DNA from: Kiritimatiellia bacterium
Lineage (GTDB): Bacteria; Verrucomicrobiota; Kiritimatiellia; RFP12; UBA1067
Assembly: GCA_050949565.1 (NCBI GenBank)
Contig: JBMNFY010000014.1
Location: 1 to 45,830, forward strand
DNA length: 45,830 nt
Direction of reading: 5' to 3'
Shown here: positions 25,730 to 36,394 of the stretch, in pieces
How the letters are laid out: each line of letters begins with the position of its first letter
How positions within the stretch are numbered: position 1 is the first letter of the stretch
Translations under genes and position numbers: made by a program
Notes under the pieces: model-generated
The model's database searches: none
The model's input: only the letters and a program-made list of their open reading frames with translations
Told to the model about the DNA's origin: nothing

Positions 25730-26188
25730 CTATACTTTGATCTGGAACACAGCGATCAGCGTGAAGACCATCGTGAAAATCGCAACGGTCTCGACGACGC
25801 CGAGCGCGGCGAAGTAGTTGGTGAGGCCCTGACCGGTCTCGGCCTGCGCGTCGCAGGCGGCCGCGGCGGCACGCCCTTGAAAGAGGGCGGAGACGCCGAT
25901 GCCCAGTCCTGAGAAAATACCGAGGATCAGTAGCGGCATGCCGACGGCGGCTTTCCCGAACATGACGAACATCAAGATCATGCCATACAGGGTCTGTGTG
26001 ATCGGCGCACCGACTAACCCGAGCAGGATGAAGGGCGCAGGCTTGTTCTGCACGTAGCACTTTTTCCAAGCACCCATGGCTGCTGTTGCGGCGTAGCCGG
26101 TGCCGAAGGCCGAGCCGGTGGCACTGAGTCCGAGGCAGGCGACTGCGCCCGCGATGCCCATTGCTGTGTTGATTGCTTCTGGATTCAT
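25730..26188 (-). CDS. ntpK: V/A-type ATPase proteolipid subunit K, predicted Na+-binding
   Basis: Four TM helices; PITQTLYG, FQG and VET match the T/Q/Y, Q and E Na+-site residues of Enterococcus hirae NtpK. Confidence 0.9.
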   Translation of the reverse strand: MNPEAINTAMGIAGAVACLGLSATGSAFGTGYAATAAMGAWKKCYVQNKPAPFILLGLVGAPITQTLYGMILMFVMFGKAAVGMPLLILGIFSGLGIGVSALFQGRAAAAACDAQAETGQGLTNYFAALGVVETVAIFTMVFTLIAVFQIKV

Positions 26189-26206: not shown

Positions 26207-26575
26207 TCAGCATAAGGGGATGACTGTACTGAGGATGCGATCGGCAGTTTCAATCGCCGCTTGTGCATCCGACAGACTGACGTGAATCAAGCCCCCATAG
26301 TCACCAGAGTCACGCATATCCATCAGAAAATCAAAATCTTTTCCGATGGAAGTCGGTAACTCTCCGGTTAAAATGAGATCGCGGTGAATCGCGTTTCTGA
26401 GCGTTGCATGCCGGGTAAACGTTTGACCGCGCGAAGCAAAGAAAGCAGTGAAAGCGTGGAAGGCAGCATAAAACGTACGGTTCGCCGCAGAGTTGGGGTC
26501 AATGTTGAGAACCGCTCGTGCGGCTTCAAGCGCGAGACGAGCCCGTTCTTTCTCTCCGGTAATGAACTCCGTCAT
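26207..26575 (-). CDS. HEPN domain protein (putative toxin of MNT-HEPN pair)
   Basis: SAANRTFYAAFHA, TRHATL and RDSGDY motifs of small HEPN proteins; ATGA overlap with the MNT gene. Confidence 0.85.
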   Translation of the reverse strand: MTEFITGEKERARLALEAARAVLNIDPNSAANRTFYAAFHAFTAFFASRGQTFTRHATLRNAIHRDLILTGELPTSIGKDFDFLMDMRDSGDYGGLIHVSLSDAQAAIETADRILSTVIPLC

Positions 26576-26904
26576 GCGGGGAGCCCTTCGTTTTTGATAG
26601 TGGCCAGAATAGGGGCGTTGGAGTTCTGATATTGGAATAGAGAAATGGGCTTGATGCTGACCCGGCGCCCTAAGCGAACAGCTAGGGGATACACAGCCTC
26701 TAACGCCGTACGTAACTCACCTGCGTACGTCTCAAACGGTTCCAGAACTACGAGCGCATCCAGATCGCTCTCTTCCGTCTCAGTCCCCCGCGACATCGAC
26801 CCGAAAAGAACGACAGACGACAATCGCGTCCCGAATGCACGGCTTAACAGTGCCTTTAATTCGATCGCAATCTGCTTGACATCTGTCTTTGTCTCGGTGT
26901 CCAT
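26572..26904 (-). CDS. Minimal nucleotidyltransferase (MNT antitoxin)
   Basis: LFGSMSRG...ESDLDALVV (GSx10DxD); GGGAG RBS before ATG 26904. Confidence 0.88.
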   Translation of the reverse strand: MDTETKTDVKQIAIELKALLSRAFGTRLSSVVLFGSMSRGTETEESDLDALVVLEPFETYAGELRTALEAVYPLAVRLGRRVSIKPISLFQYQNSNAPILATIKNEGLPA

Positions 26905-26926
26905 GTGTGTCTCCCTTTTTTCGAAC

Positions 26927-26955
26927 ATCGTGCCATATTTCTTGGGGATAATCAA
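26927..26955 (-). promoter_or_regulatory. Possible internal promoter for MNT-HEPN (and ntpK)
   Basis: Minus strand TTGATT-N17-CACGAT with TG preceding the -10 box; weak -10 match. Confidence 0.35.
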
Positions 26956-26970
26956 ATCGCACGGCATCGC

Positions 26971-28818
26971 CTATTGCACGTTTGGATTACGCCTGAACGG
27001 TTTGAAGGCGTAGCCGGACCAGGTAATGCCTTTGTGGTTTGAGAATTCCAGGGTGTTGAGGCGGACGGCATGCACCAAGATGCTGAGTCCCGCCATCGCG
27101 AGGTTTAATCCGTGGCCAAGTAGCAGGATTAGGATCAGCGGCGGAATCTTGGCCCACAGCGGCAATCCCATATTGATTGCCATGCTGTTGAAGTTTTCTG
27201 CGACCTTGACCGAGGCCAGTCCCACGGCGAAGAGACGCACGTAAGAGATGATATCTCCGAGCGCGCTCACGATGTTGAGCGGCAGCATGCCGAGTTCAAT
27301 GCCATTGGTCTTGAGTTCATTGCGCTTTAGCGTGAAGAGGAAGATCAAAACCAGTGAGACGGCGAAGACGGGGTAGATGAAGGTCGGCACCGCAAAGATT
27401 CCGACAATGCCACACGACATGCAGTACATGAAGGCCAGTACGCCAACCCACCCGAGTTCCGCCAGTGCTTTGGTGTCCGGGAACAGGACGACGAAGTTCC
27501 AGAGACGCGCTATCGAGAGGTGAGTGAGCCCCAACGTGAAGCAGAGCAGCATCATGTTGTTGATGCCGTCTTCGGGATGGTTCAGCCAGCGGCTGGCCGT
27601 GTTGTCTGCGAATCCGGGGTGGGTACCGAACCAGGTGTTGGAGAGTGTGCCCCAAATGATGGTGCCTATCGAGAAGCAGGTCATCAGGATGAACGGCGCG
27701 CGCGGTGCCTTTGGCAGTTTGCGGCGCACGTAAAACGTCGCCGCCAGAAGCAGTGCGCCATAGCCGCCGTCTCCCACCAGCATGGCGAAAAAGATGGCGA
27801 AAAAGCAGAAGAAGGGGACGCTGACGTCGGCCTCTGTATAGGCCGGCGAAATGTCGAGCCCCTTGAAGAGTGCCAGTACGGGTCGGAAGAGGCGCGGCGG
27901 CCGCAACAACGTGGGCGGCGCCTCGTCTTCCTGTGGATCGCGTATCAGCAGACCCCACGCGTTTTCGCGCGCAGCCCCGCGTAGCTCATCTTCTTGGTCG
28001 GCAGGTAGCCAGCCGGTGATCCAGACCACCGCGCCGTCGGCTTGCATCGCGGCGGCGGCTGTGGCGAAGAGGCTTTCTTCACTCAGGCGGTCAACTTCGG
28101 CCTGCATGTCGTCCGCACGGCGGCGGGCAGTGCGGCGCAAACGTGCCGTGATCTGGCGGATCCGTGCATGCGCCGTTTTGTGCTGTTCGTGCAGCACACT
28201 GAGCGAACTTTCAGGTAACGCTTCAGGTATACAGCCTGCGGGCAGGGCACCCGGTCCGATCATCACGCCCCAGACAGTGCGGGTATTGGCGCTGAGCGTT
28301 TGGATCATAGCACCTTCGCCCGGCGTCAGCGCAACGGAAGTCGGTGCTTTGAACAGGCGGACCGGTACGCCGCGCGCGACGAGTCGTGCGGGCAGGGTGA
28401 TGTCGAAGTCGCCGAAGGGCGTCACGCGCGCGATCTCTCGTTTGATCCACTCGGCCTCGTTGGCCAGCTCTTGGCGCAATTCGTCCAGTTGGCAGATGGC
28501 GGCGATACGTTCTCCGGCGTCTCCTGTGATCTTTGGCAACGGAACCGTCAAGGGGTCGGTGGGGCCTTCATCGCGGTTATAGGCCCTGTGCGGGCCGGAG
28601 AGGGTGGGAATAACAGGCTTGCCGGCCAGCGCGTCCTTCAGAATCTGCTGCGCCCGACGTGCGGTCGCCAACTGATCCCGTGCGTCGCGGCAGGCGTCGG
28701 AATCGGTCGCGTCGCCCAGCTCAAGGTGTACGGCACCCAGTTCGCGCAAACGCTCCAGCGTGGTTTCGCGTTCAGCGGCCACGCAGAGCAGGGTCATGTG
28801 TCGCATTGGAACAATCAT
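26971..28818 (-). CDS. ntpI: V/A-type ATPase subunit I
   Basis: MIVPM..., GWLP, PPTLL, FFAMLVGDGGYG, DIISYVRLFAVGLA, HAVRLNTLEF. Confidence 0.92.
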   Translation of the reverse strand: MIVPMRHMTLLCVAAERETTLERLRELGAVHLELGDATDSDACRDARDQLATARRAQQILKDALAGKPVIPTLSGPHRAYNRDEGPTDPLTVPLPKITGDAGERIAAICQLDELRQELANEAEWIKREIARVTPFGDFDITLPARLVARGVPVRLFKAPTSVALTPGEGAMIQTLSANTRTVWGVMIGPGALPAGCIPEALPESSLSVLHEQHKTAHARIRQITARLRRTARRRADDMQAEVDRLSEESLFATAAAAMQADGAVVWITGWLPADQEDELRGAARENAWGLLIRDPQEDEAPPTLLRPPRLFRPVLALFKGLDISPAYTEADVSVPFFCFFAIFFAMLVGDGGYGALLLAATFYVRRKLPKAPRAPFILMTCFSIGTIIWGTLSNTWFGTHPGFADNTASRWLNHPEDGINNMMLLCFTLGLTHLSIARLWNFVVLFPDTKALAELGWVGVLAFMYCMSCGIVGIFAVPTFIYPVFAVSLVLIFLFTLKRNELKTNGIELGMLPLNIVSALGDIISYVRLFAVGLASVKVAENFNSMAINMGLPLWAKIPPLILILLLGHGLNLAMAGLSILVHAVRLNTLEFSNHKGITWSGYAFKPFRRNPNVQ

Positions 28819-29429
28819 GCCGCGTCCTCCTGTTGGGGCTGGTTGGCGCGTCCTTTGGCGATCTTGCCGCGGGTGACCGCAGCAGTCTGCTCGTCGCCGA
28901 TCGCAATGCGGATGATCCGGATGTTCTCTTTGCACTCCGGGATCTTGATCTTCTCGAACAGGTTCACGCGTTGCGACGTGGTGGTCAGTTCATGAAAAAT
29001 CAGTTCGCGCTGGCGTTCGAGCACGAGCCGCTCGGCTTTGAGCGACAGAATGGCGGTCAGGCTTTCCGCCGCATTGTCATACCAAGCCGGCGTCGCGAAG
29101 AGGTCGAGCGTCGCGCGCGCGACATCAATGCCCTTGTAGATAGGGATGGTCACCCCCGCGATGTTACTGGTACCGGTGTTGACGCGTTCGACACGAATCA
29201 GCGCGTCCAATGCCTCGTCCTGTTCAGCGAAGAGCGCGACCCACGCATCAAGTGCGCGCCGCGCGGCGGTTTCGCGTGCCGTGACCTCGTCGATCCGTGC
29301 GGTGATGGCGGCGATCTCCGCCTGCAACTGCTGTTTCTTGAGCTGCAGCATCGGTAGAAAACGCTCGAAGCGCTTGAGTGCGTCATTCTGCGCCTTCAGT
29401 TCAGTTTTCGTGTATTTGATCTTGCTCAC
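28815..29429 (-). CDS. ntpD: V/A-type ATPase subunit D
   Basis: TKTELK, LPMLQLKKQQL, NIAGV, TTSQRVNLFEKIKIP. Confidence 0.92.
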   Translation of the reverse strand: MSKIKYTKTELKAQNDALKRFERFLPMLQLKKQQLQAEIAAITARIDEVTARETAARRALDAWVALFAEQDEALDALIRVERVNTGTSNIAGVTIPIYKGIDVARATLDLFATPAWYDNAAESLTAILSLKAERLVLERQRELIFHELTTTSQRVNLFEKIKIPECKENIRIIRIAIGDEQTAAVTRGKIAKGRANQPQQEDAA

Positions 29430-29460
29430 AGTCTTACAGCCTCACAGCCTTACAGCCTCA
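29427..29460. repeat. Octamer tandem (minus strand GRCTGTRA x4) between subunit B and D genes
   Basis: Plus strand cacagtcttacagcctcacagccttacagcctca. Confidence 0.75.
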
Positions 29461-30765
29461 TTGCCTTACCGCCTTCTTCGGCCAGAACTTGTCGGTGAGC
29501 TTGGTGGGGATGCCGGTTTCGCCTGGCTTGAAACAGTCAGCCAGGATCTCCCAGCCCAGATCGAGCGCCTGTTCAAGTGGGATGTTGACGGAGAGATCCA
29601 TCATCTCGTTTTCGAAGCGTTCGCCGTATTTGAGCAGTTTGTCGTCCCAGTCGCTCATGCGGAAGCCCATGGACTGCTTCTCTTGTGTCTCCTTAAAGGC
29701 GGCGTAGAGCTTGATCATCGCGTCCATGATGGTGCGGTGGTCTTCCCGCGTGTTTTTGTTGACCTGTTGCTTGAGGCGGCTCAGCGAACCGAAAGGCTCG
29801 ATACGTCCATCACGCAGATAGAACTGCCCTTCAGTGATATAGCCGGTGTTGTCCGGCACCGGGTGGGTGACGTCATCGCCGGGCATGGTCGTGGCCGCGA
29901 GGATGGTGATGGAACCTGCACCCTCGAAGTCGACCGCCTTCTCATACCGCGCGGCGAGTTGCGAGTAAAGATCGCCCGGATAGCCACGGTTGGAGGGGAT
30001 CTGCTCCATGGTGATGGCGATCTCTTTGAGCGCATCGGCGAAGCTGGTCATGTCGGTCAGCAGCACCAGCACCTTTTTGCCCTGCAAGGCGAACTGCTCG
30101 GCCGTGGCCAGCGCGATATCCGGCACCAGTGTGCATTCGACGATCGGGTCGGCGGCGGTATGCACGAACATGACGGTGCGCGAAAGTGCGCCGCTTTCGT
30201 CCAGCGTGTCGCGGAAGGCGAGGTAGTCGTCGTGCTTGAGTCCCATGCCGCCGAGGATGATGATGTCGACCTCGGCTTGCAAGGCGATGCGTGCGAGTAG
30301 GGGGTTGTAGGGTTCACCGGCACGGGCGAAGATCGGCAACTTCTGCGATTCGACCAGCGAGTTGAAGACATCGATCATCGGGATATTGGTGCGCACCATG
30401 TTGCGCGGGATGATACGCTTGGCCGGGTTCACCGATGGCGTGCCGATGTCGATCAGGTTATCGGTCAACACGGGGCCGCCGTCGCGCGGCACGGCGCTGC
30501 CGGTGAAGGCGCGGCCGAGCAATGCATCCGAGAACGGAACACGCATGGGCGCGCCCAGAAAACGCACTTTGCCGTCGGTTGCTATGCCGCGCGCCCCAGC
30601 GAAAACTTGCAGGGTAACGGTGTCGCCGTCAAGCTTGATGACCTGCGCCAACGACGTGCCACTCCGTGAGGTGACCTCGGCGAGTTCACGGTATTTTGCT
30701 CCGCGCGCGCGCAACGTGATGACGCTGCCTGAGAGGTTGTCAATTGTGTGGTAAATCTTATGCAT
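29458..30765 (-). CDS. ntpB: V/A-type ATPase subunit B
   Basis: [60 protein letters not shown]. Confidence 0.95.
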
Positions 30766-31378
30766 GAGTAGTACTCCGAGTCTCGACTGCCGTTAGAAGA
30801 GATTGAATGAACTGAGTGATAGGGCTAAAAGCTACATGGTCAAAAGGGATAAACTTTTTCTTTGCTGCCAACCCCAACCTTAACTCTGGGTCTGAAAGCG
30901 TGCTCAACCAAGCGTGAATACGGCGTTTGTCCATTTCTGTCGGCGACAACGACGCTTGGTCATTTTCAGATACACATGCCATGAATTGTTCCACGCAGGG
31001 CCAGTTTGGATATGTGGACACGGCTTCAATCACAAGAGCTTCCAAGGCTCCGGATGTATCCTTTTTGGGCAGGATGTACGTGTCGACGTGAAGCGTATCA
31101 GGCAGCTTAGAATTGTCAATAGCGGTCTTTACGCTGGCCAACGCCGCAGCGTGATCCAGATCCGCATCGCGGGTGATGCCGAGTGCGCTCAGCTTGGAGA
31201 AGGTTGTCTGGGCCTTTAGCCCGGCAAGGAACCCTGCGAGTTTGTCTTTGCCGCCGTATTGTGTGACTTGGATCGAGGACGACAGCCCAAGGTGATTTAC
31301 CATGGCACAGAAGAAAAGTTCTTCTTCGCGCCCCTCGCCGATCAAAAGAGCAGGTTTTTCGATGGAAAATTTGCTCAT
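30758..31378 (-). CDS. DUF3226-like protein (TOPRIM-like acidic motifs), partner of the AAA ATPase
   Basis: [21 protein letters not shown] (DxD), [15 protein letters not shown]; overlaps both neighbours. Confidence 0.7.
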
Positions 31379-32391
31379 CGGATCTCCATCTCCGTTTCTA
31401 TGGCGACATCAATGTCGGCATGGTTGAGGACGAAGGCGGCGATGCCCTGCTCAGGGTCGAGGCGAAGTTTGATGACAGCAAAGTCATCCGCGTTTTCAGC
31501 AAAAGCCTTATGCGCGGCAACGATGCACTCATAGGAGTGCGTTGTCGCAAAAATCTGGACGTCGTTGTCGCGGGCAAATTTACCGAGCGCCGACCAGATC
31601 GGGCCGATGGCGTCATGCTGGAGTCCGTTCTCGAACTCATCAATTAAGAGGGCGCGCGGCCGCTCAGTCATCAGGGACGCGAACAGCCCGAGCATCCGGG
31701 ATGTCCCTTGGCCAAGCTGTGTGGCCGGGATCAACTCCTTGCCTTTGCCGAGCCCAACATCCGCATAAACGTAAGGATGCTGATGCCCAGGTAGCTTCAG
31801 GTATTTAAGCTTGCGGATACGCGGGTCGATCAGGCGCAGATACGAAACCAGTTCTTCATCGCGATTTATCACGGAAACCGTGTTTACTCTCTCGGCATCA
31901 ACGACCGGAGATGGGTGAAATGCGGTCAAAGCGATGCAATCGGGACCGGGAGGCGGGAGGGTGAAGGAAAATGAGGAATGTTGTCCAAGTGTAGAGTGGA
32001 CATCGCCAACAGACGCCTTCAAGTACGAGCCTTCAAAAAAGAGGGATAACGAGCGGTTGTCTTTTGCGGATGCAGCAGACAGTCCAATTGAAATCTGCCG
32101 AGAGATGTCCTTTTGGAAAAACAGCCATTTCCAGAAGTTGTCGATATCATCGGGCGGAGATTGTGTGCGCGGCTCATACTTTATTGCGGAGCGCCGGAAG
32201 AGTGATTGCGCGTATGGAGTCAGCGTTTCGGGGGACGAGAACGGATTATCCTGCAACGCGAGCCAGATGGCCTCGAGGACGGACGTTTTGCCGACGTTAT
32301 TGCCACCCGCAATCAGGTTAACGCGGTGCAACGGGGCGATTTCGATTTTCTCGAACGCCCTGAAGTTCTCGATAGCCAGCTTGTCAAACAT
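31375..32391 (-). CDS. ABC/AAA ATPase (AAA_15/AAA_21-like) of a putative defence or TA pair
   Basis: IENFRAF, Walker A GGNNVGKTS, LGQG signature, Walker B LLIDEFENGL, FATTHS. Confidence 0.88.
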   Translation of the reverse strand: MFDKLAIENFRAFEKIEIAPLHRVNLIAGGNNVGKTSVLEAIWLALQDNPFSSPETLTPYAQSLFRRSAIKYEPRTQSPPDDIDNFWKWLFFQKDISRQISIGLSAASAKDNRSLSLFFEGSYLKASVGDVHSTLGQHSSFSFTLPPPGPDCIALTAFHPSPVVDAERVNTVSVINRDEELVSYLRLIDPRIRKLKYLKLPGHQHPYVYADVGLGKGKELIPATQLGQGTSRMLGLFASLMTERPRALLIDEFENGLQHDAIGPIWSALGKFARDNDVQIFATTHSYECIVAAHKAFAENADDFAVIKLRLDPEQGIAAFVLNHADIDVAIETEMEIR

Positions 32392-34126
32392 GCGTGACCT
32401 CCTTGAGCGTCTTGGCCAGCGCCTCCTTGCGGGCGGTGTATTCCGGTGATTCGTACGTGGTCATGTTCCAGTCGATGCAAGCCTGTGTCAGGCGTTGGAA
32501 GAACCTGCGTGCCTCGTCTTTTTGTTTGAAGGAGTAGGTGATAAGCAGAGCCTTTTCCATCATCTCGAACATCTCGCGCTGGCGTTCCACCGGCGAGGCG
32601 GCATCGATCTCGCTGAAGGCGTCCTGCTGGAGATACACCGCGTCGATGAACTCACTTTTCAGATAGGTGATGAAGTCGTCAATGCTGGTGCCTTCTTCAC
32701 CGACCACCTTCATCATCTGGGCCACGTCGTTGCCTTGGCGCAAGATCGCACGCGCCCGCTCGACGCGGTTTTTATCGATGACGCTGGTGTATTTGCTCCA
32801 GCTTTCCAACGGGTCGATGGCGGGAAAGCGGCGCGCGTCGGAACGTGCGCGGGAGAGACCGTGGAAAGCGCCGACAACCTTGAGCGTGGCCTGCGTGACC
32901 GGCTCGTCGAAGTTGCCGCCTGCGGGCGAGACCGTGCCGCCGATGGTGACCGAGCCGATCGAACCGTCCTTGAGCCTCACCAAGCCGGCGCGCTCGTAGA
33001 AGTTGGAGATGAGCGATTCAAGATAGGCGGGGAAGGCTTCTTCGCCGGGGATCTCTTCCAGACGGCCCGAAAGTTCGCGCAGCGCCTGCGCCCAGCGTGA
33101 GGTGGAGTCGGCCAGCAGCAGCACATTCAGCCCCATCTGGCGGTAATAACTCGCGATGGTGACGGCGGTGTAGACCGAGGCTTCACGTGCCGCTACCGGC
33201 ATGGATGAGGTGTTGCAGATGATGACGGTACGATCCATCAAGCTTTTGCCGGTGCGCGGGTCTTCCAGTTCGGGGAACTCGCGCAGGGTTTCCACCACCT
33301 CGCCGGCGCGTTCGCCGCAGGCGGCGAAGACCACGATGTCTACGTCGGCATAACGCGAAGTGGTCTGCTGTAAAACGGTCTTGCCAGCGCCGAAGGGGCC
33401 GGGGATGCAGTAGGTGCCGCCGAGCGCGACCGGGAAAAAGGTGTCGATCGTACGCACGCGGGTGGTCATGGTGTCCTTGGGCATTAGCCGTTCCGCGAAG
33501 CAGGTGATCGGTAACTTGACCGGCCAGCGTTGCAACATGGTGACGCCGTGGTCGTGTCCGTTTTCATCCGTAATGACGGCGATCTCATCCTCGACCTGAT
33601 ACTTGCCGGTGTTTGCGACACTTTTGACCGTGAAGGCGCCCTGCATGGCGAAGGGCACCATGATGCGGTGTTTGAAAATACCTTCGGGCACGGTGCCCAA
33701 CGTCTCGCCCGCCGTCACGCGGGCACCGGGTTTGGCGACCGGCGTGAACTCCCATTTCGCCTCGCGGTCGATGGCCTTGAGGTAGGTGCCGCGCTGCAAG
33801 AAAAAGCCGCATTGCTCAGCGAGCCGGGGCAGGGGGTTCTGCAGGCCGTCGTAGATCTGCGTGAGCAGTCCCGGAGCCAGTTCGGCGGAGAGCAGGTGGC
33901 CGGTGAACGTTACAGTGTCATCGACCTGCAGGTCGCGCGTATCCTCGAAGACCTGCATGTCCGCCATGTGACCGCGGATGCGGACGATTTCGCTCATCAG
34001 GCGTTGTTCCGTGCCGTCTTCTTGGCGCACCTGCGCGAACCCGACTTCGTTCTGCGCGACTGCGCCGTCGAATGCGACGGTGATCATGTTACCGTTGACG
34101 CCGACGATTTTTCCTGTGGTTTCCAT
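32384..34126 (-). CDS. ntpA: V/A-type ATPase catalytic subunit A
   Basis: GPFGAGKT P-loop, CGERAGE, NTSSMPVAAREAS, ADSTSRWAQA, PGEEAFPAYL, VSPAGGNF. Confidence 0.96.
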   Translation of the reverse strand: METTGKIVGVNGNMITVAFDGAVAQNEVGFAQVRQEDGTEQRLMSEIVRIRGHMADMQVFEDTRDLQVDDTVTFTGHLLSAELAPGLLTQIYDGLQNPLPRLAEQCGFFLQRGTYLKAIDREAKWEFTPVAKPGARVTAGETLGTVPEGIFKHRIMVPFAMQGAFTVKSVANTGKYQVEDEIAVITDENGHDHGVTMLQRWPVKLPITCFAERLMPKDTMTTRVRTIDTFFPVALGGTYCIPGPFGAGKTVLQQTTSRYADVDIVVFAACGERAGEVVETLREFPELEDPRTGKSLMDRTVIICNTSSMPVAAREASVYTAVTIASYYRQMGLNVLLLADSTSRWAQALRELSGRLEEIPGEEAFPAYLESLISNFYERAGLVRLKDGSIGSVTIGGTVSPAGGNFDEPVTQATLKVVGAFHGLSRARSDARRFPAIDPLESWSKYTSVIDKNRVERARAILRQGNDVAQMMKVVGEEGTSIDDFITYLKSEFIDAVYLQQDAFSEIDAASPVERQREMFEMMEKALLITYSFKQKDEARRFFQRLTQACIDWNMTTYESPEYTARKEALAKTLKEVTHV

Positions 34127-34153
34127 AAGTGTGTTTCCGTAATTGGGCGGGGG

Positions 34154-34687
34154 TCATTCGTCCGTGTTAAGCGTGAGGGGAGTTTCAGTGAGGCAGTCAA
34201 AGGCGGCCTGGCCTTGTTCGGGTGTCCGAGCTGTCCAGCGGGCGACAATCGCGAGTTTGATGGCATAGGCAAAGACGTTCTTCACATTGAGCGGGTCCGG
34301 ACCTTGCAACTCTTCGGCGACCAGCCAGCGGATTCTGTCAAGCGCCTTTTCGCGCTGCAGCGGGTCCTTCTCGTCAAAAGCATCTTCAACCAAGTTGCCA
34401 ATGCGTGTATCACATCCCTGCTCGGGACGCAACCAGCGGGAAGCGTCGGTACCGGCCAGACGCGCGCGCTGGTAGGCGGCGGCATTGCGCAGGATCGTGT
34501 CGCGGTCGCGCCAAGTGGTGACAAAGGGATGGTCACATGCGGCATCGGTGAGCAGGGCCTCGGCCGCAGCCGCGTCGGCGGCACTGAGCTGATCACGGCA
34601 AGCCGCCACGAACGCCTCGGTCGTGATCGGTGCCGGCGCATCAAGCTGCAACGTGGGCAGGCTGGAAAGTAGGTAGATGACACTCAT
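34154..34687 (-). CDS. V/A-type ATPase-associated subunit C-like protein (DUF2764 type)
   Basis: YLLSSLPTL N-terminus, DPLQREKALD..RW, AYAIKL; position between subunits E and A. Confidence 0.75.
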   Translation of the reverse strand: MSVIYLLSSLPTLQLDAPAPITTEAFVAACRDQLSAADAAAAEALLTDAACDHPFVTTWRDRDTILRNAAAYQRARLAGTDASRWLRPEQGCDTRIGNLVEDAFDEKDPLQREKALDRIRWLVAEELQGPDPLNVKNVFAYAIKLAIVARWTARTPEQGQAAFDCLTETPLTLNTDE

Positions 34688-35277
34688 GGTTTCATCAGGG
34701 CGGCCAGACGCGGGCGGAGCTGTTTGGCGAGAGCCTCGGCGATCGCATCGCCGGTGAAGGTGTGTTCCACATGCCCATTGTCGAGACGCAGGCGGAAGCC
34801 GCTGCCGGTCGCGTCATCGGTCACGATCGTGACGCCGCTGTCCGCAGCCTCTGCGGCGAGCTTCGCGCGTAGCGCGTCGGTCAATTTGGCGGCGGCGGCC
34901 ACCTCGATCCCGTCCTTGCCGTTCAAGTGGGCGCGTACGGCTTCGGCGGCCAGTTCGGCGACCAGTCCGGGATCCGCGTCAAAGCTGGCGTTGATGTTTT
35001 TAATCAAGAGCCGGTGCAAAAGACTCGTGATGGCCTTTTCGACCTTCATCACGGTATCGCGCGCGGCCTGCTGTATGGTCTCTTCGGCGCGGTGCCCGAA
35101 GTTTTCAGCCTCTTGACGCGCATCGGCCGTGATCTTCATGGCCTCAGTCTGGGCGGCGTTTAGGACCGACTCAGCCTTGGCCTTTGCGTCGGCGAGCAGG
35201 GCATCGGCCTCGGCCTGAGCTTTGCCGACGCCGTCGCGCTGGATTTTTTCGAGAAGTTGTTGCAAGTCTTGTGTCAT
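34684..35277 (-). CDS. ntpE: V/A-type ATPase subunit E
   Basis: LQQLLEKIQRDGV..A.AEA coiled coil, QAARD, GFRL; first gene of the operon. Confidence 0.85.
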   Translation of the reverse strand: MTQDLQQLLEKIQRDGVGKAQAEADALLADAKAKAESVLNAAQTEAMKITADARQEAENFGHRAEETIQQAARDTVMKVEKAITSLLHRLLIKNINASFDADPGLVAELAAEAVRAHLNGKDGIEVAAAAKLTDALRAKLAAEAADSGVTIVTDDATGSGFRLRLDNGHVEHTFTGDAIAEALAKQLRPRLAALMKP

Positions 35278-35397
35278 AACATCACCTTAAAACTGTCCGA
35301 GCGTGGGTTGTGCAAAGAGCATGCCCCATTGCATGCGGATAACAATAAAGAAGGAGCGGGAGAGTGGTCAAGAAAGAACCGATATTTATCGCTCGAT

Positions 35398-35860
35398 TGT
35401 CTAACGCGGGCGAAGCCCGCAAACCCAATTCGATCTCACACAAAGGCCACGAAGGCCACAAAGTTTCCCGTCTTTGCGCGCCACCCAGACGCTGCCCTCC
35501 AACACTTGCCATCGGGCTTGCTAAGCACAGGGAGGGGCAAGCGTCTGCTTGCCCGCGGACGAGCGACGCTCGTCCCTCCCATCCTTCCGCGTAGCGGAAG
35601 GCGGCTCGTGGGGACACTCGCCCTCCAACCTTCGTGTCTTCGCGCCTTCGCGTGAAACAACCGAGCAGTGCTTTTACTCGCGACTCGCGGCCAGCCCTGC
35701 CCCAAAAATAATCTGCGTAATCTGTGCCCATCTGTGGATAAAAAAAACCGAGTAGTGCTCCAAAAAACCTCTGCGTCTCTGCGCCTCTGCGTTAGAAAAA
35801 CTCCTAAATCCTAAATGACAACCCCGCGCATAGCGCGGCTGTGCCTTCGTGTGAGGAAAC
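35398..35860. repeat. Mosaic repeat block 4
   Basis: Starts with the CTAACGCGGGCGAAGCCCGCAAACCCAA hairpin; contains a REP-like palindrome (~35530-35580), CTTCGYGYC tandems, ATCTGYG tandems, the CTCTGCGTCTCTGCGCCTCTGCGTT module and CCGAG(C/T)AGTGCT linkers. Confidence 0.85.
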
Positions 35861-35897
35861 AATTTGTTTTTCATTGCGCTTGTCGAGCCGTAAGGCA

Positions 35898-36378
35898 CTA
35901 AAGCGGCGTGATCGGTCCGGTGTAGGTGTCGCAAGCCTGCTGGAGCGCCTCCGTATGCTGGTGCATGATACGGATGAGGTGCCGCAGGTCAGTTTCACCA
36001 ACGGTTTCATAGAGCGCTGGTTTCTACAGCGTGAATTTCGGCTTTCAAGCGTTTCACCTTGTCAAGCCCTCTGCGTGTGAGGCGGATGATCTTGCGACGG
36101 CGGTCCTGTGGATGCGGCAGGCGGGTGACCAGTCCCTGCTTCTCAAGGCCGTCGAGCAGGGCGGTCACGGTTTGGCGGGGAATTGTCAGTTCGTCAGCCG
36201 CTTCGGCCGCCTCGGCATGTTCGCGGTGGCAGTCGAGATAATCCAGCAGCATATACGTGTTGAGGGGTACCCCCCATTTGAGGAGAAAGAGGTTCACTTG
36301 ACGGGCAAGTTTATGAAAAACCTCCTTCATCTCACCAGCCAACTGAATGACTGTTTCGTCCTTCATTTCGTTGTGCAT
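35898..36378 (-). CDS. MarR-family regulator (apparent frameshift near 36020; annotated ORF ends at 36007)
   Basis: PRQTVTALLDGLEKQGLVTR..PQDRRRKIIRLT wHTH; a plausible terminal helix (YETVGETDLRHLIRIMHQHTEALQQ...*) continues in another frame to 35898. Confidence 0.85.
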
Positions 36379-36394
36379 ATCGAACCTCCGTGGC

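Follow-up and report, generated by a model that had tools for sequence, protein, structure and literature searches.

An AbiL-like candidate cassette embedded in the translational overlap between V-type ATPase subunits A and B of a Kiritimatiellia bacterium

How does a two-gene cassette come to lie exactly between the overlapping genes of two subunits of a housekeeping proton pump? The question arises from a stretch of 45,830 nucleotides of a Kiritimatiellia bacterium (contig JBMNFY010000014.1, assembly GCA_050949565.1). The window, as we call it, is this whole 45.8-kb contig, and it carries a V-type ATPase operon on the minus strand, in which the genes follow in the order E, DUF2764, A, (ABC ATPase + DUF3226), B, D, I, (MNT + HEPN), K. 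The element studied here is the first of the two bracketed pairs, a gene for an ABC-type ATPase and a gene for a DUF3226 protein located between the genes of subunits A (ntpA) and B (ntpB). The original prediction, made from the window by itself, had placed this two-gene cassette at the exact start codon of B and described its two junctions. Both are confirmed by the sequence, and comparison with relatives supports an insertion into a formerly overlapping A/B junction.

Subunit A ends ..AAGGAGGTCACGCATGTTTGA (also read as ..CACGCATGTTTGA), and the ATG of this string, at position 32391, opens the 338-residue open reading frame (ORF) of the ATPase. The final codons of A (..KEVTHV*) contain an AAGGAGG ribosome-binding site, which now serves the cassette. 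The two cassette ORFs overlap by four bases (ATGA), and two ORFs with a 4-base overlap are present in all alleles. The 206-residue DUF3226 ORF ends ..ACTACTCATGCATAA (also given as ..ACTCATGCATAA), and its ATG (30765) starts subunit B. From where these ORF starts and stops fall, both outer junctions are 8-base start/stop overlaps, and the right one is identical to the ancestral overlap of A and B. The CATG common to both junctions amounts to four bases and is, alone, no more than chance. The insertion reading is thus validated by the comparison with relatives and not by the CATG repeat.

For this comparison, the region 3′ of A was taken from hits of A searches among 40 relatives and 319 genomes of the order. 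This gave 69 loci, of which 62 could be assessed; in three of the others A runs off the contig end, three hold too little of A and one has 448 bases after A. All of the genomes compared are metagenome-assembled genomes, in which assembly errors are possible, and the filled arrangement recurs in independent assemblies. The empty site that had been predicted is present letter for letter in genome G109, which reads ..GGAGGTCACGCATGCATAA.. and whose uninterrupted junction AAGGAGGTCACGCATGCATAA gives A ..KEVTHA* and B MHK... In 34 of the 62 loci, spread over families f1, f5, f7, f8, f9 and f11, A and B are joined by this 8-base overlap, either as CATG[C/T]ATAA or in a closely similar form. The remaining loci have a 4-base overlap (4/62), a GTG-type compact junction (2/62), a spacer of 1–54 bases (8/62), an 87-base remnant (1/62, G096), A followed by other genes with B elsewhere (3/62), or cargo genes between A and B (10/62, in six genera). 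Judged from this distribution, the empty 8-base overlap is the ancestral state.

An alternative is that the two genes belong to the operon by ancestry or function, for instance as regulators of the pump, and that most relatives have lost them. Their position and orientation are always the same, they are intact in three genera, and they occur with A and B in contigs from RNA libraries. This explanation is nevertheless highly improbable and we disfavour it. The 8-base overlap is the majority state over six families of the order, the GC (guanine plus cytosine) content of the cassette is lower than that of its neighbours (∼0.48–0.58 vs ∼0.60–0.65 in A and B), homologous pairs in other phyla occur without V-ATPase genes, the family matches models of defence candidates, and unrelated cargo occupies the same slot in other genera.

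In agreement with the original prediction, no recombinase, promoter or terminal repeats were found in the cassette, the promoter scan being weak evidence here. No terminal direct or inverted repeats were detected at its ends. A transposon or integrative element would differ in this respect, since the two ORFs of the cassette are both assigned, neither to a transposase nor to an integrase, and the cassette lacks a terminal inverted repeat or att-like repeat. No sigma-70-like promoter site lies inside the cassette; an 11-kb scan gave two such sites, both upstream of the operon, compared to 3.6 ± 2.1 expected from shuffled sequences, which is weak evidence in this phylum.

The ATPase contains a Walker A motif (GGNNVGKTS), a signature-like QLGQG, a Walker B motif (LLIDE) and an H-loop (TTHS), and GGNNVGKTS, LLIDE and TTHS are invariant in an alignment of four alleles. 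Its best match in PADLOC, at the top of 103 hits, is PDC-M38A (PDLC04611, E 2.2e-45), and it also matches AbiLi (PDLC02336, E 2.6e-44), AriA (2e-22), GajA (9e-18) and Old (3.8e-11). The DUF3226 protein carries GEG..E and DAD motifs; over 45 sequences of the family, E15 and D73 are invariant and D71 is nearly so. In PADLOC it matches PDC-M38B (PDLC04623, 2.4e-10; PDLC04624, 3.4e-9) and, at E ≤ 0.01, only PDC-M38B, with no match to an AbiLii or AriB model. A search of its profile against the sequences of solved structures gave nothing meaningful (best E 0.72). A model predicted from the 45-sequence alignment (pLDDT 93.6) was compared with known folds using VIA-align. The closest was PH0156 (Z 13.5), followed by the C-terminal region of OLD from Burkholderia pseudomallei (Z 10.3 with a root-mean-square deviation of 4.6 for 163 residues), T7 primase (Z 9.2), OLD from Thermus scotoductus (Z 9.1), GajA (Z 7.1) and AriB (Z 6.5). 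Foldseek agrees weakly (probability 0.99 to 6njw, but E only 2.5e-3). Based on the motifs and profile matches of the ATPase and on the fold and residues of its partner, the pair is likely to be a split OLD-like ATPase + Toprim module. We assign it to the PADLOC PDC-M38/AbiL-like group of candidate anti-phage modules.

A distinctive feature of the DUF3226 protein is a 12-codon C-terminal extension, which contains a GGAG now located ahead of B and runs into the ancestral CATGCATAA. DUF3226 proteins outside this locus end ..F[IL]xSL and lack the extension. Most members of the locus clade (P0002–P0018) have an extension of 8–13 residues that ends H-A/V and reads into the ancestral CATG[C/T]ATAA. 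The earlier claim that the cassette takes over the ribosome-binding site of B thus holds, and B is now served by a new GGAG/GAGGA within the extension. The Toprim partner is the fast-changing part of the cassette, with 47–55% identity between allele types vs 62–88% for the ATPase.

Homologues of the ATPase (E ≤ 1e-20) are present in 6 of the 319 genomes of the order, in all cases between A and B. The bearers are the genome of the window (G000), its near-twin G004 and G001 in genus g1, G111 and G110 in genus g9, and G101 in genus g35. In G101 (L081/L040), the reading frame of the B gene breaks ∼320 bases from its start, leaving two frames, because of a frameshift or an assembly error. A metagenome scan gave 12 loci, nine of which have an identity of 69% or more. 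B follows the cassette directly in each of these nine; eight of them also have A upstream, and the ninth contig begins 47 bases before the cassette. In a species-representative collection, nothing exceeded 34% identity. The distant AAA + DUF3226 pairs found at 25–34% (PVC bacteria, Dehalococcoidia and Oscillospiraceae) are not adjacent to V-ATPase genes. The lower GC content and these distant pairs away from V-ATPase genes mark the cassette as foreign.

Comparison of the window with G001, of the same genus, gives an impression of the age of the cassette. The 3′ end of A is 82% identical at the nucleotide level, with 36 of 49 four-fold degenerate sites identical, the ATPases are 82% identical in amino acid sequence (76/133 four-fold sites), and the DUF3226 proteins are 55% identical (14/51). 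The alleles are deeply diverged, and four-fold sites are saturated at 27–40%. The cassette is therefore old, polymorphic and fixed to one locus, and not recently and repeatedly inserted. Transfer of the cassette between genera without its flanks was considered for G001 and G111 and is left as suggestive, since the tail of A evolves fast: their cassettes are 84.6% identical in nucleotides (160/234 four-fold sites), compared to 77.6% for the 3′ end of A (26/51) and 86.6% for the 5′ part of B.

Direct comparison of alleles makes recombination visible. Between L095 and L094, whose sequence is that of the window, there are 119 differences in 6 kb, of which 105 fall in one tract comprising the 3′ part of the ATPase gene, the DUF3226 gene and the first ∼330 bases of B. 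The A and B proteins of these two alleles are 100% identical and their DUF3226 proteins differ by 11%. The filled L099 and the empty L003 (G005) differ at 17 of 1287 positions in B and by ∼5% in A, but by ∼50% in the last 78 bases of A; next to a near-identical B, this difference shows that the tail of A and the cassette were exchanged as one block. In a quick IQ-TREE tree of the first 855 bases of B (46 rows, with G101 left out because of its frameshift and L099 standing for G001), the filled alleles are scattered over five positions, and at each of them the neighbour is an empty allele (SH-aLRT support 94–100). Homologous recombination acts at the A–B locus, with tracts that run across or border on the junctions.

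The original prediction had suggested looking for other cargo at the A–B junction of related genomes, and such cargo was found in other genera, with five types overall. Besides the AbiL-like cassette, genus g34 carries an ORF6N-domain gene (G096, of this genus, keeps the 87-base remnant), G024 an ORF6N gene, an N6/N4 DNA methylase gene and a 242-residue ORF, G025 an ORF6N gene and a 177-residue ORF, and G106 a RecQ-like helicase gene with a DuOB domain and two DUF488 genes. In another g34 genome, G098 (L050, 333–2261), four ORF6N copies or fragments of 101, 232, 212 and 98 residues stand in tandem between A and B, each beginning with ATGAGCGA.. and linked to the next by ATGA overlaps. In the G024 cargo (L031, 2702–5172), the methylase belongs to PF01555 and the 242-residue ORF has four copies of the repeat GQRPEINST. 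Parts of the ORF6N motif RSRSQ..TLNAQ turn up again where the methylase gene begins and close to the end of the third ORF, an indication of nested rearrangements.

The points at which these cargoes enter vary within about 30 bases of the A–B junction. The AbiL-like cassette and the ORF6N gene of G024 enter directly after the ATG. In g34 (ORF6N) and G106, the tail and stop of A are different, and the cargo starts 6 and ∼16 bases later, respectively. The right junction of the cassette differs among alleles as well, being either an 8-base overlap or a stop located 3–4 bases ahead of the ATG. The left junction has the same arrangement in nine filled alleles, and the cassette of the tenth (L097) starts with GTG (that of G110 lies outside the available sequence). 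In L097, the final residues of A are altered to match the GTG start, so this junction is still evolving. Since the entry positions differ and the right junction varies, selection rather than targeting would account for the junctions, and a permissive segment of ∼30 bases on which selection acts describes the pattern better than one fixed cut site would.

We can now weigh the possibility that a dedicated mechanism, encoded in the cassette or in trans, recognises start/stop overlaps such as GCATG and inserts or excises promoter-less cassettes with a 4–7-base duplication. The bases repeated at the cassette ends are CATG in the window, GCATG in L096, L100 and G001, and ACGCATG in L095 (the left copy is altered in L097). 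Such repeats are what this mechanism would leave, but an ATG is required by function at both ends, so that only 1–4 extra bases are repeated. The ORF6N gene of G024 starts at the exact ATG that would be that of B, whereas the differing tails and stops of A and the short spacers in g34 and G106 do not point to a common cut site. The slot itself seems favoured. Inserts of >250 bases, counted over all loci holding a given junction with cassette-found loci included, number 0/30 at E–C, 0/34 at C–A, 0/28 at D–I and 0/24 relatives at I–K, none at these four junctions, compared to cargo in 10 of the 62 relatives at A–B. Inserts do occur at B–D (6/43). Among four distant PDC-M38-like pairs that could be assessed, two abut a co-directional upstream gene, by 1 and 9 bases, and PDC systems are defined by their embedding in operons in Payne et al. 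(see below). On the other side, the searches revealed neither a recombinase gene nor terminal inverted or longer direct repeats, close copies of the cassette are all at one locus, unlike those of a hopping mobile element, and their spread is explained by recombination tracts. A dedicated mechanism is, in our judgement, quite unlikely. The start-codon-targeted insertion put forward in the original prediction is thus unsupported, given the differing entry positions, the repeats of 4–7 bases, the recombination tracts and an apparently old and polymorphic cassette.

A second route to the present junctions would be an insertion with long target duplication (Kobayashi-type), or a Campbell-type integration at short homology, in which the duplicated segment from ribosome-binding site to ATG has since diverged. 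A target duplication of >30 bp is described for the insertion of restriction-modification genes without other mobility genes (Furuta, Abe and Kobayashi 2010, PMC2853133). The likeness lies in defence-type genes inserted without a transposase or integrase, with their neighbours intact. The ORF6N gene of G024 is flanked by a 37-base direct repeat (31/37 identical) that spans the ribosome-binding site, the ATG and six codons, and its C-terminus ..EAADHG* mimics the ..EAANHG* of A. In the locus-specific extension of DUF3226, moreover, GAGGA/GGAG lies roughly as far from the ATG as is usual, and the ending H-A/V-* is like that of A. However, the AbiL-like cassette shows no detectable duplication beyond 4–7 bases, short of the published >30 bp. 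The 24 bases before the left and right ATG of seven alleles are no more alike than the tail of A is to 1267 start contexts bearing a ribosome-binding site, and the fraction of null contexts from the same genome at or above the observed identity is 0.18–0.91. A long target duplication is undetectable for the cassette since these contexts match the genome null, and we regard such an origin as rather unlikely.

Building on the observed anatomy, empty sites, polymorphism, recombination tracts and presence in RNA libraries, we consider it reasonably probable that the cassette is a promoter-less candidate module with a history of rare illegitimate insertion, selection for coupling, and homologous recombination that moves alleles. 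The module would have been embedded long ago in the 8-base ntpA/ntpB overlap of a Kiritimatiellia V-ATPase operon, probably by a rare illegitimate insertion at the level of microhomology. Selection would have kept those arrangements that preserve the end of A together with a ribosome-binding site and an ATG for B. The module would be transcribed with the operon and translated by coupling, the ribosome-binding site of A and the former ATG of B starting the ATPase, and the extension of DUF3226 would supply the new ribosome-binding site and, by running into the old CATGCATAA, re-couple B. The locus would from then on serve as an accessory-gene slot. Through homologous recombination, within the cassette as well as in its conserved flanks, related lineages would swap alleles of the filled, empty and variant kind. 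The junctions may look scarless because homologous recombination copies junctions exactly.

Several points weigh against this history. The empty G109 and the filled L100 and L096 differ at only 4 of 320 bases of the 3′ end of A and 18–22 of 900 bases of B. No diverged tract surrounds the junction in this comparison, and the indel is exact and bounded by the 5-base GCATG. Such a near-isogenic filled/empty pair with an exact boundary is also a point in favour of targeting, and it requires either that a deletion or insertion was precise or that recombination involved an unsampled empty allele of very similar sequence. That this indel represents an excision or insertion by a precise, GCATG-using mechanism without a cassette recombinase, and not an allele replacement, seems to us doubtful. 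Furthermore, selection alone may not explain why A–B is favoured, because six genera have cargo there and none has any at E–C, C–A, D–I or I–K. Carry-over of DNA is possible in RNA libraries, in which a contig does not prove a single transcript. Finally, the role of the pair in defence is suggested by its family membership, which makes it a candidate only.

The RNA libraries are among 20 public runs that contain the stretch, six of them RNA. In run X3, one contig of 3401 nt without differences spans positions 29650–33050, across both junctions. In run X16, from a second study, contigs span 31797–34500 and 30729–31516. These contigs are consistent with read-through transcription. A search for joints of the empty allele in the Logan contigs of X1 and X13 (DNA) and X3 and X16 (RNA), over 28500–34500 at 90% likeness, found none, and is uninformative on absence because such contigs drop rare variants.

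AbiL of Lactococcus, which consists of AbiLi and AbiLii, gives abortive infection. The ATPase of the cassette matches AbiLi, but its partner is a DUF3226 (PH0156-like) protein instead of AbiLii, an RloB-type Toprim protein. The pair resembles OLD in its intact ABC ATPase motifs and in a Toprim protein with conserved Glu and DxD residues, the fold of which is closest to OLD C-terminal regions. However, OLD and GajA are single polypeptides, whereas the cassette pair consists of two ORFs. GajA and AriA/AriB (Gabija and PARIS) are similar in the ATPase profile, with a partner fold that scores lower than OLD. Both proteins match the models of PDC-M38, with the same gene order and overlap. This label is taken from PADLOC-DB, and the name is absent from the main text of Payne, Hughes, Fineran and Jackson (bioRxiv 10.1101/2024.01.29.577857). 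In that paper, 145 PDCs are presented as candidates, found embedded and co-oriented inside other operons (‘guilt-by-embedding’). The hosts given there are the defence operons Hma, BREX, DISARM and type I restriction-modification, in contrast to the housekeeping V-ATPase operon and the insert in a translational overlap described here.

The slot can also be compared with hotspots of gene transfer. Defence hotspots between core genes were reportedly described by Johnson et al. in 2023. In Oliveira et al. 2017 (PMC5635113), transfer hotspots free of mobile genetic elements lie between core genes and are diversified by homologous recombination in the flanks. The A–B slot has similar conserved core flanks, a high turnover of unrelated cargo, no mobility genes and recombination tracts in the flanks. 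The published hotspots lie between transcription units, whereas the A–B slot coincides with a start/stop overlap within an operon, and its cargo lacks a promoter-like site. According to the same paper, the gain of new genes by operons is considered rare and confined to their edges; the present arrangement is unusual because new genes rarely settle inside operons. The locus thus differs from known phenomena in two ways, namely the housekeeping host operon and the translational-overlap site. Among open-access texts, no paper was found that describes the A–B overlap arrangement, DUF3226 or a V-type ATPase of Kiritimatiellae. Searches there on defence genes in housekeeping operons with translational coupling yielded nothing relevant, and the texts that name ‘housekeeping operon’ filter such operons out.

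The overlap between two catalytic subunit genes of a housekeeping proton pump may thus have served for long as a recombining slot, open to foreign genes of the defence type and of other kinds, which would borrow the transcription and the ribosome-binding site of the operon. Searches for defence genes that discard genes in housekeeping operons will miss such systems. The locus offers a natural series of filled and empty alleles for studying how promoter-less cassettes are embedded and whether embedding guards against loss, and it is a concrete case for the candidate PDC-M38 family. If cassettes were indeed placed or removed precisely, the overlaps between co-translated genes of core operons would constitute integration sites of a class not recognised before.

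Table 1. Positions of the operon genes and of the cassette junctions in the window
Feature	Position	Strand	Basis
197-residue ORF (subunit E)	34684-35277	-	Called from position alone; Pfam search without match
DUF2764 protein	34154-34687	-	Pfam DUF2764 1e-11
V-type ATPase subunit A, 580 residues	32384-34126	-	PF00006 3e-65, PF16886, PF22919, PF02874
Left junction, 8-base overlap ATGTTTGA	32384..32391	-	ATPase gene start + stop of A
Cassette gene 1, ABC-type ATPase, 338 residues	31375-32391	-	Pfam AAA_21 7e-19, AAA_15 2e-18, AAA_23
Cassette gene 2, DUF3226 Toprim-fold protein, 206 residues	30758-31378	-	PF11536 9e-23
12-codon C-terminal extension of DUF3226	30761..30796	-	C-termini of 45 family members; junction table
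Right junction, 8-base overlap ATGCATAA	30758..30765	-	B start + DUF3226 stop
V-type ATPase subunit B, 435 residues	29458-30765	-	PF00006 3e-52, PF22919, PF02874
Subunit D	28815-29429	-	Pfam ATP-synt_D
Subunit I	26971 to about 28821	-	Pfam V_ATPase_I
MNT	26572-26967 (start perhaps 26904)	-	Pfam NTP_transf_2
HEPN	26207-26575	-	Pfam HEPN
Proteolipid K	25730-26188	-	Membrane-like sequence, position and conservation as last operon gene; not Pfam

Around the cassette, the operon shows further irregularities. At 26207–26967, within a 782-base gap between I and K, the MNT nucleotidyltransferase and HEPN genes form a second foreign, toxin-antitoxin-like pair (GC ∼0.48–0.54). None of the loci of 25 relatives that hold both I and K has an insert in this gap, and the window alone carries MNT/HEPN. 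Upstream, the region ∼35400–35800, between a MarR gene and the first gene of the operon, matches dozens of places in the genome with 82–98% identity and represents a dispersed short repeat. A 149-residue ORF that overlaps it is doubtful as a gene because of this repeat and the lack of a Pfam hit.

The end of another contig of the same assembly (C15:130000–132721, L036) is 98.2% identical to window positions 33683–36393 over 2721 bases. It repeats the upstream region of the operon and the first 444 bases of ntpA, inside which the contig stops. This ntpA fragment was considered as an alternative allele of the A–B locus and set aside, as it ends 1.3 kb short of the junction and is uninformative there. 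The probable source of the copy is either another strain in the bin or a true duplication.

Among the relatives, A is not followed by B in G011, G033 and G008 (L026, L028 and L029), where matches to B lie on other contigs. The operon may be broken at the A–B boundary in several genera; contig ends or large inserts are also possible. The inserts at B–D, found in L061, L071, L072, L059, L066 and L031, are 450–1260 bases long. Their cargo includes four-helix proteins of the 23S-rRNA-IVS type (PF05635; scanned in L061 and L071) and a PD-(D/E)XK_3 protein (L059).

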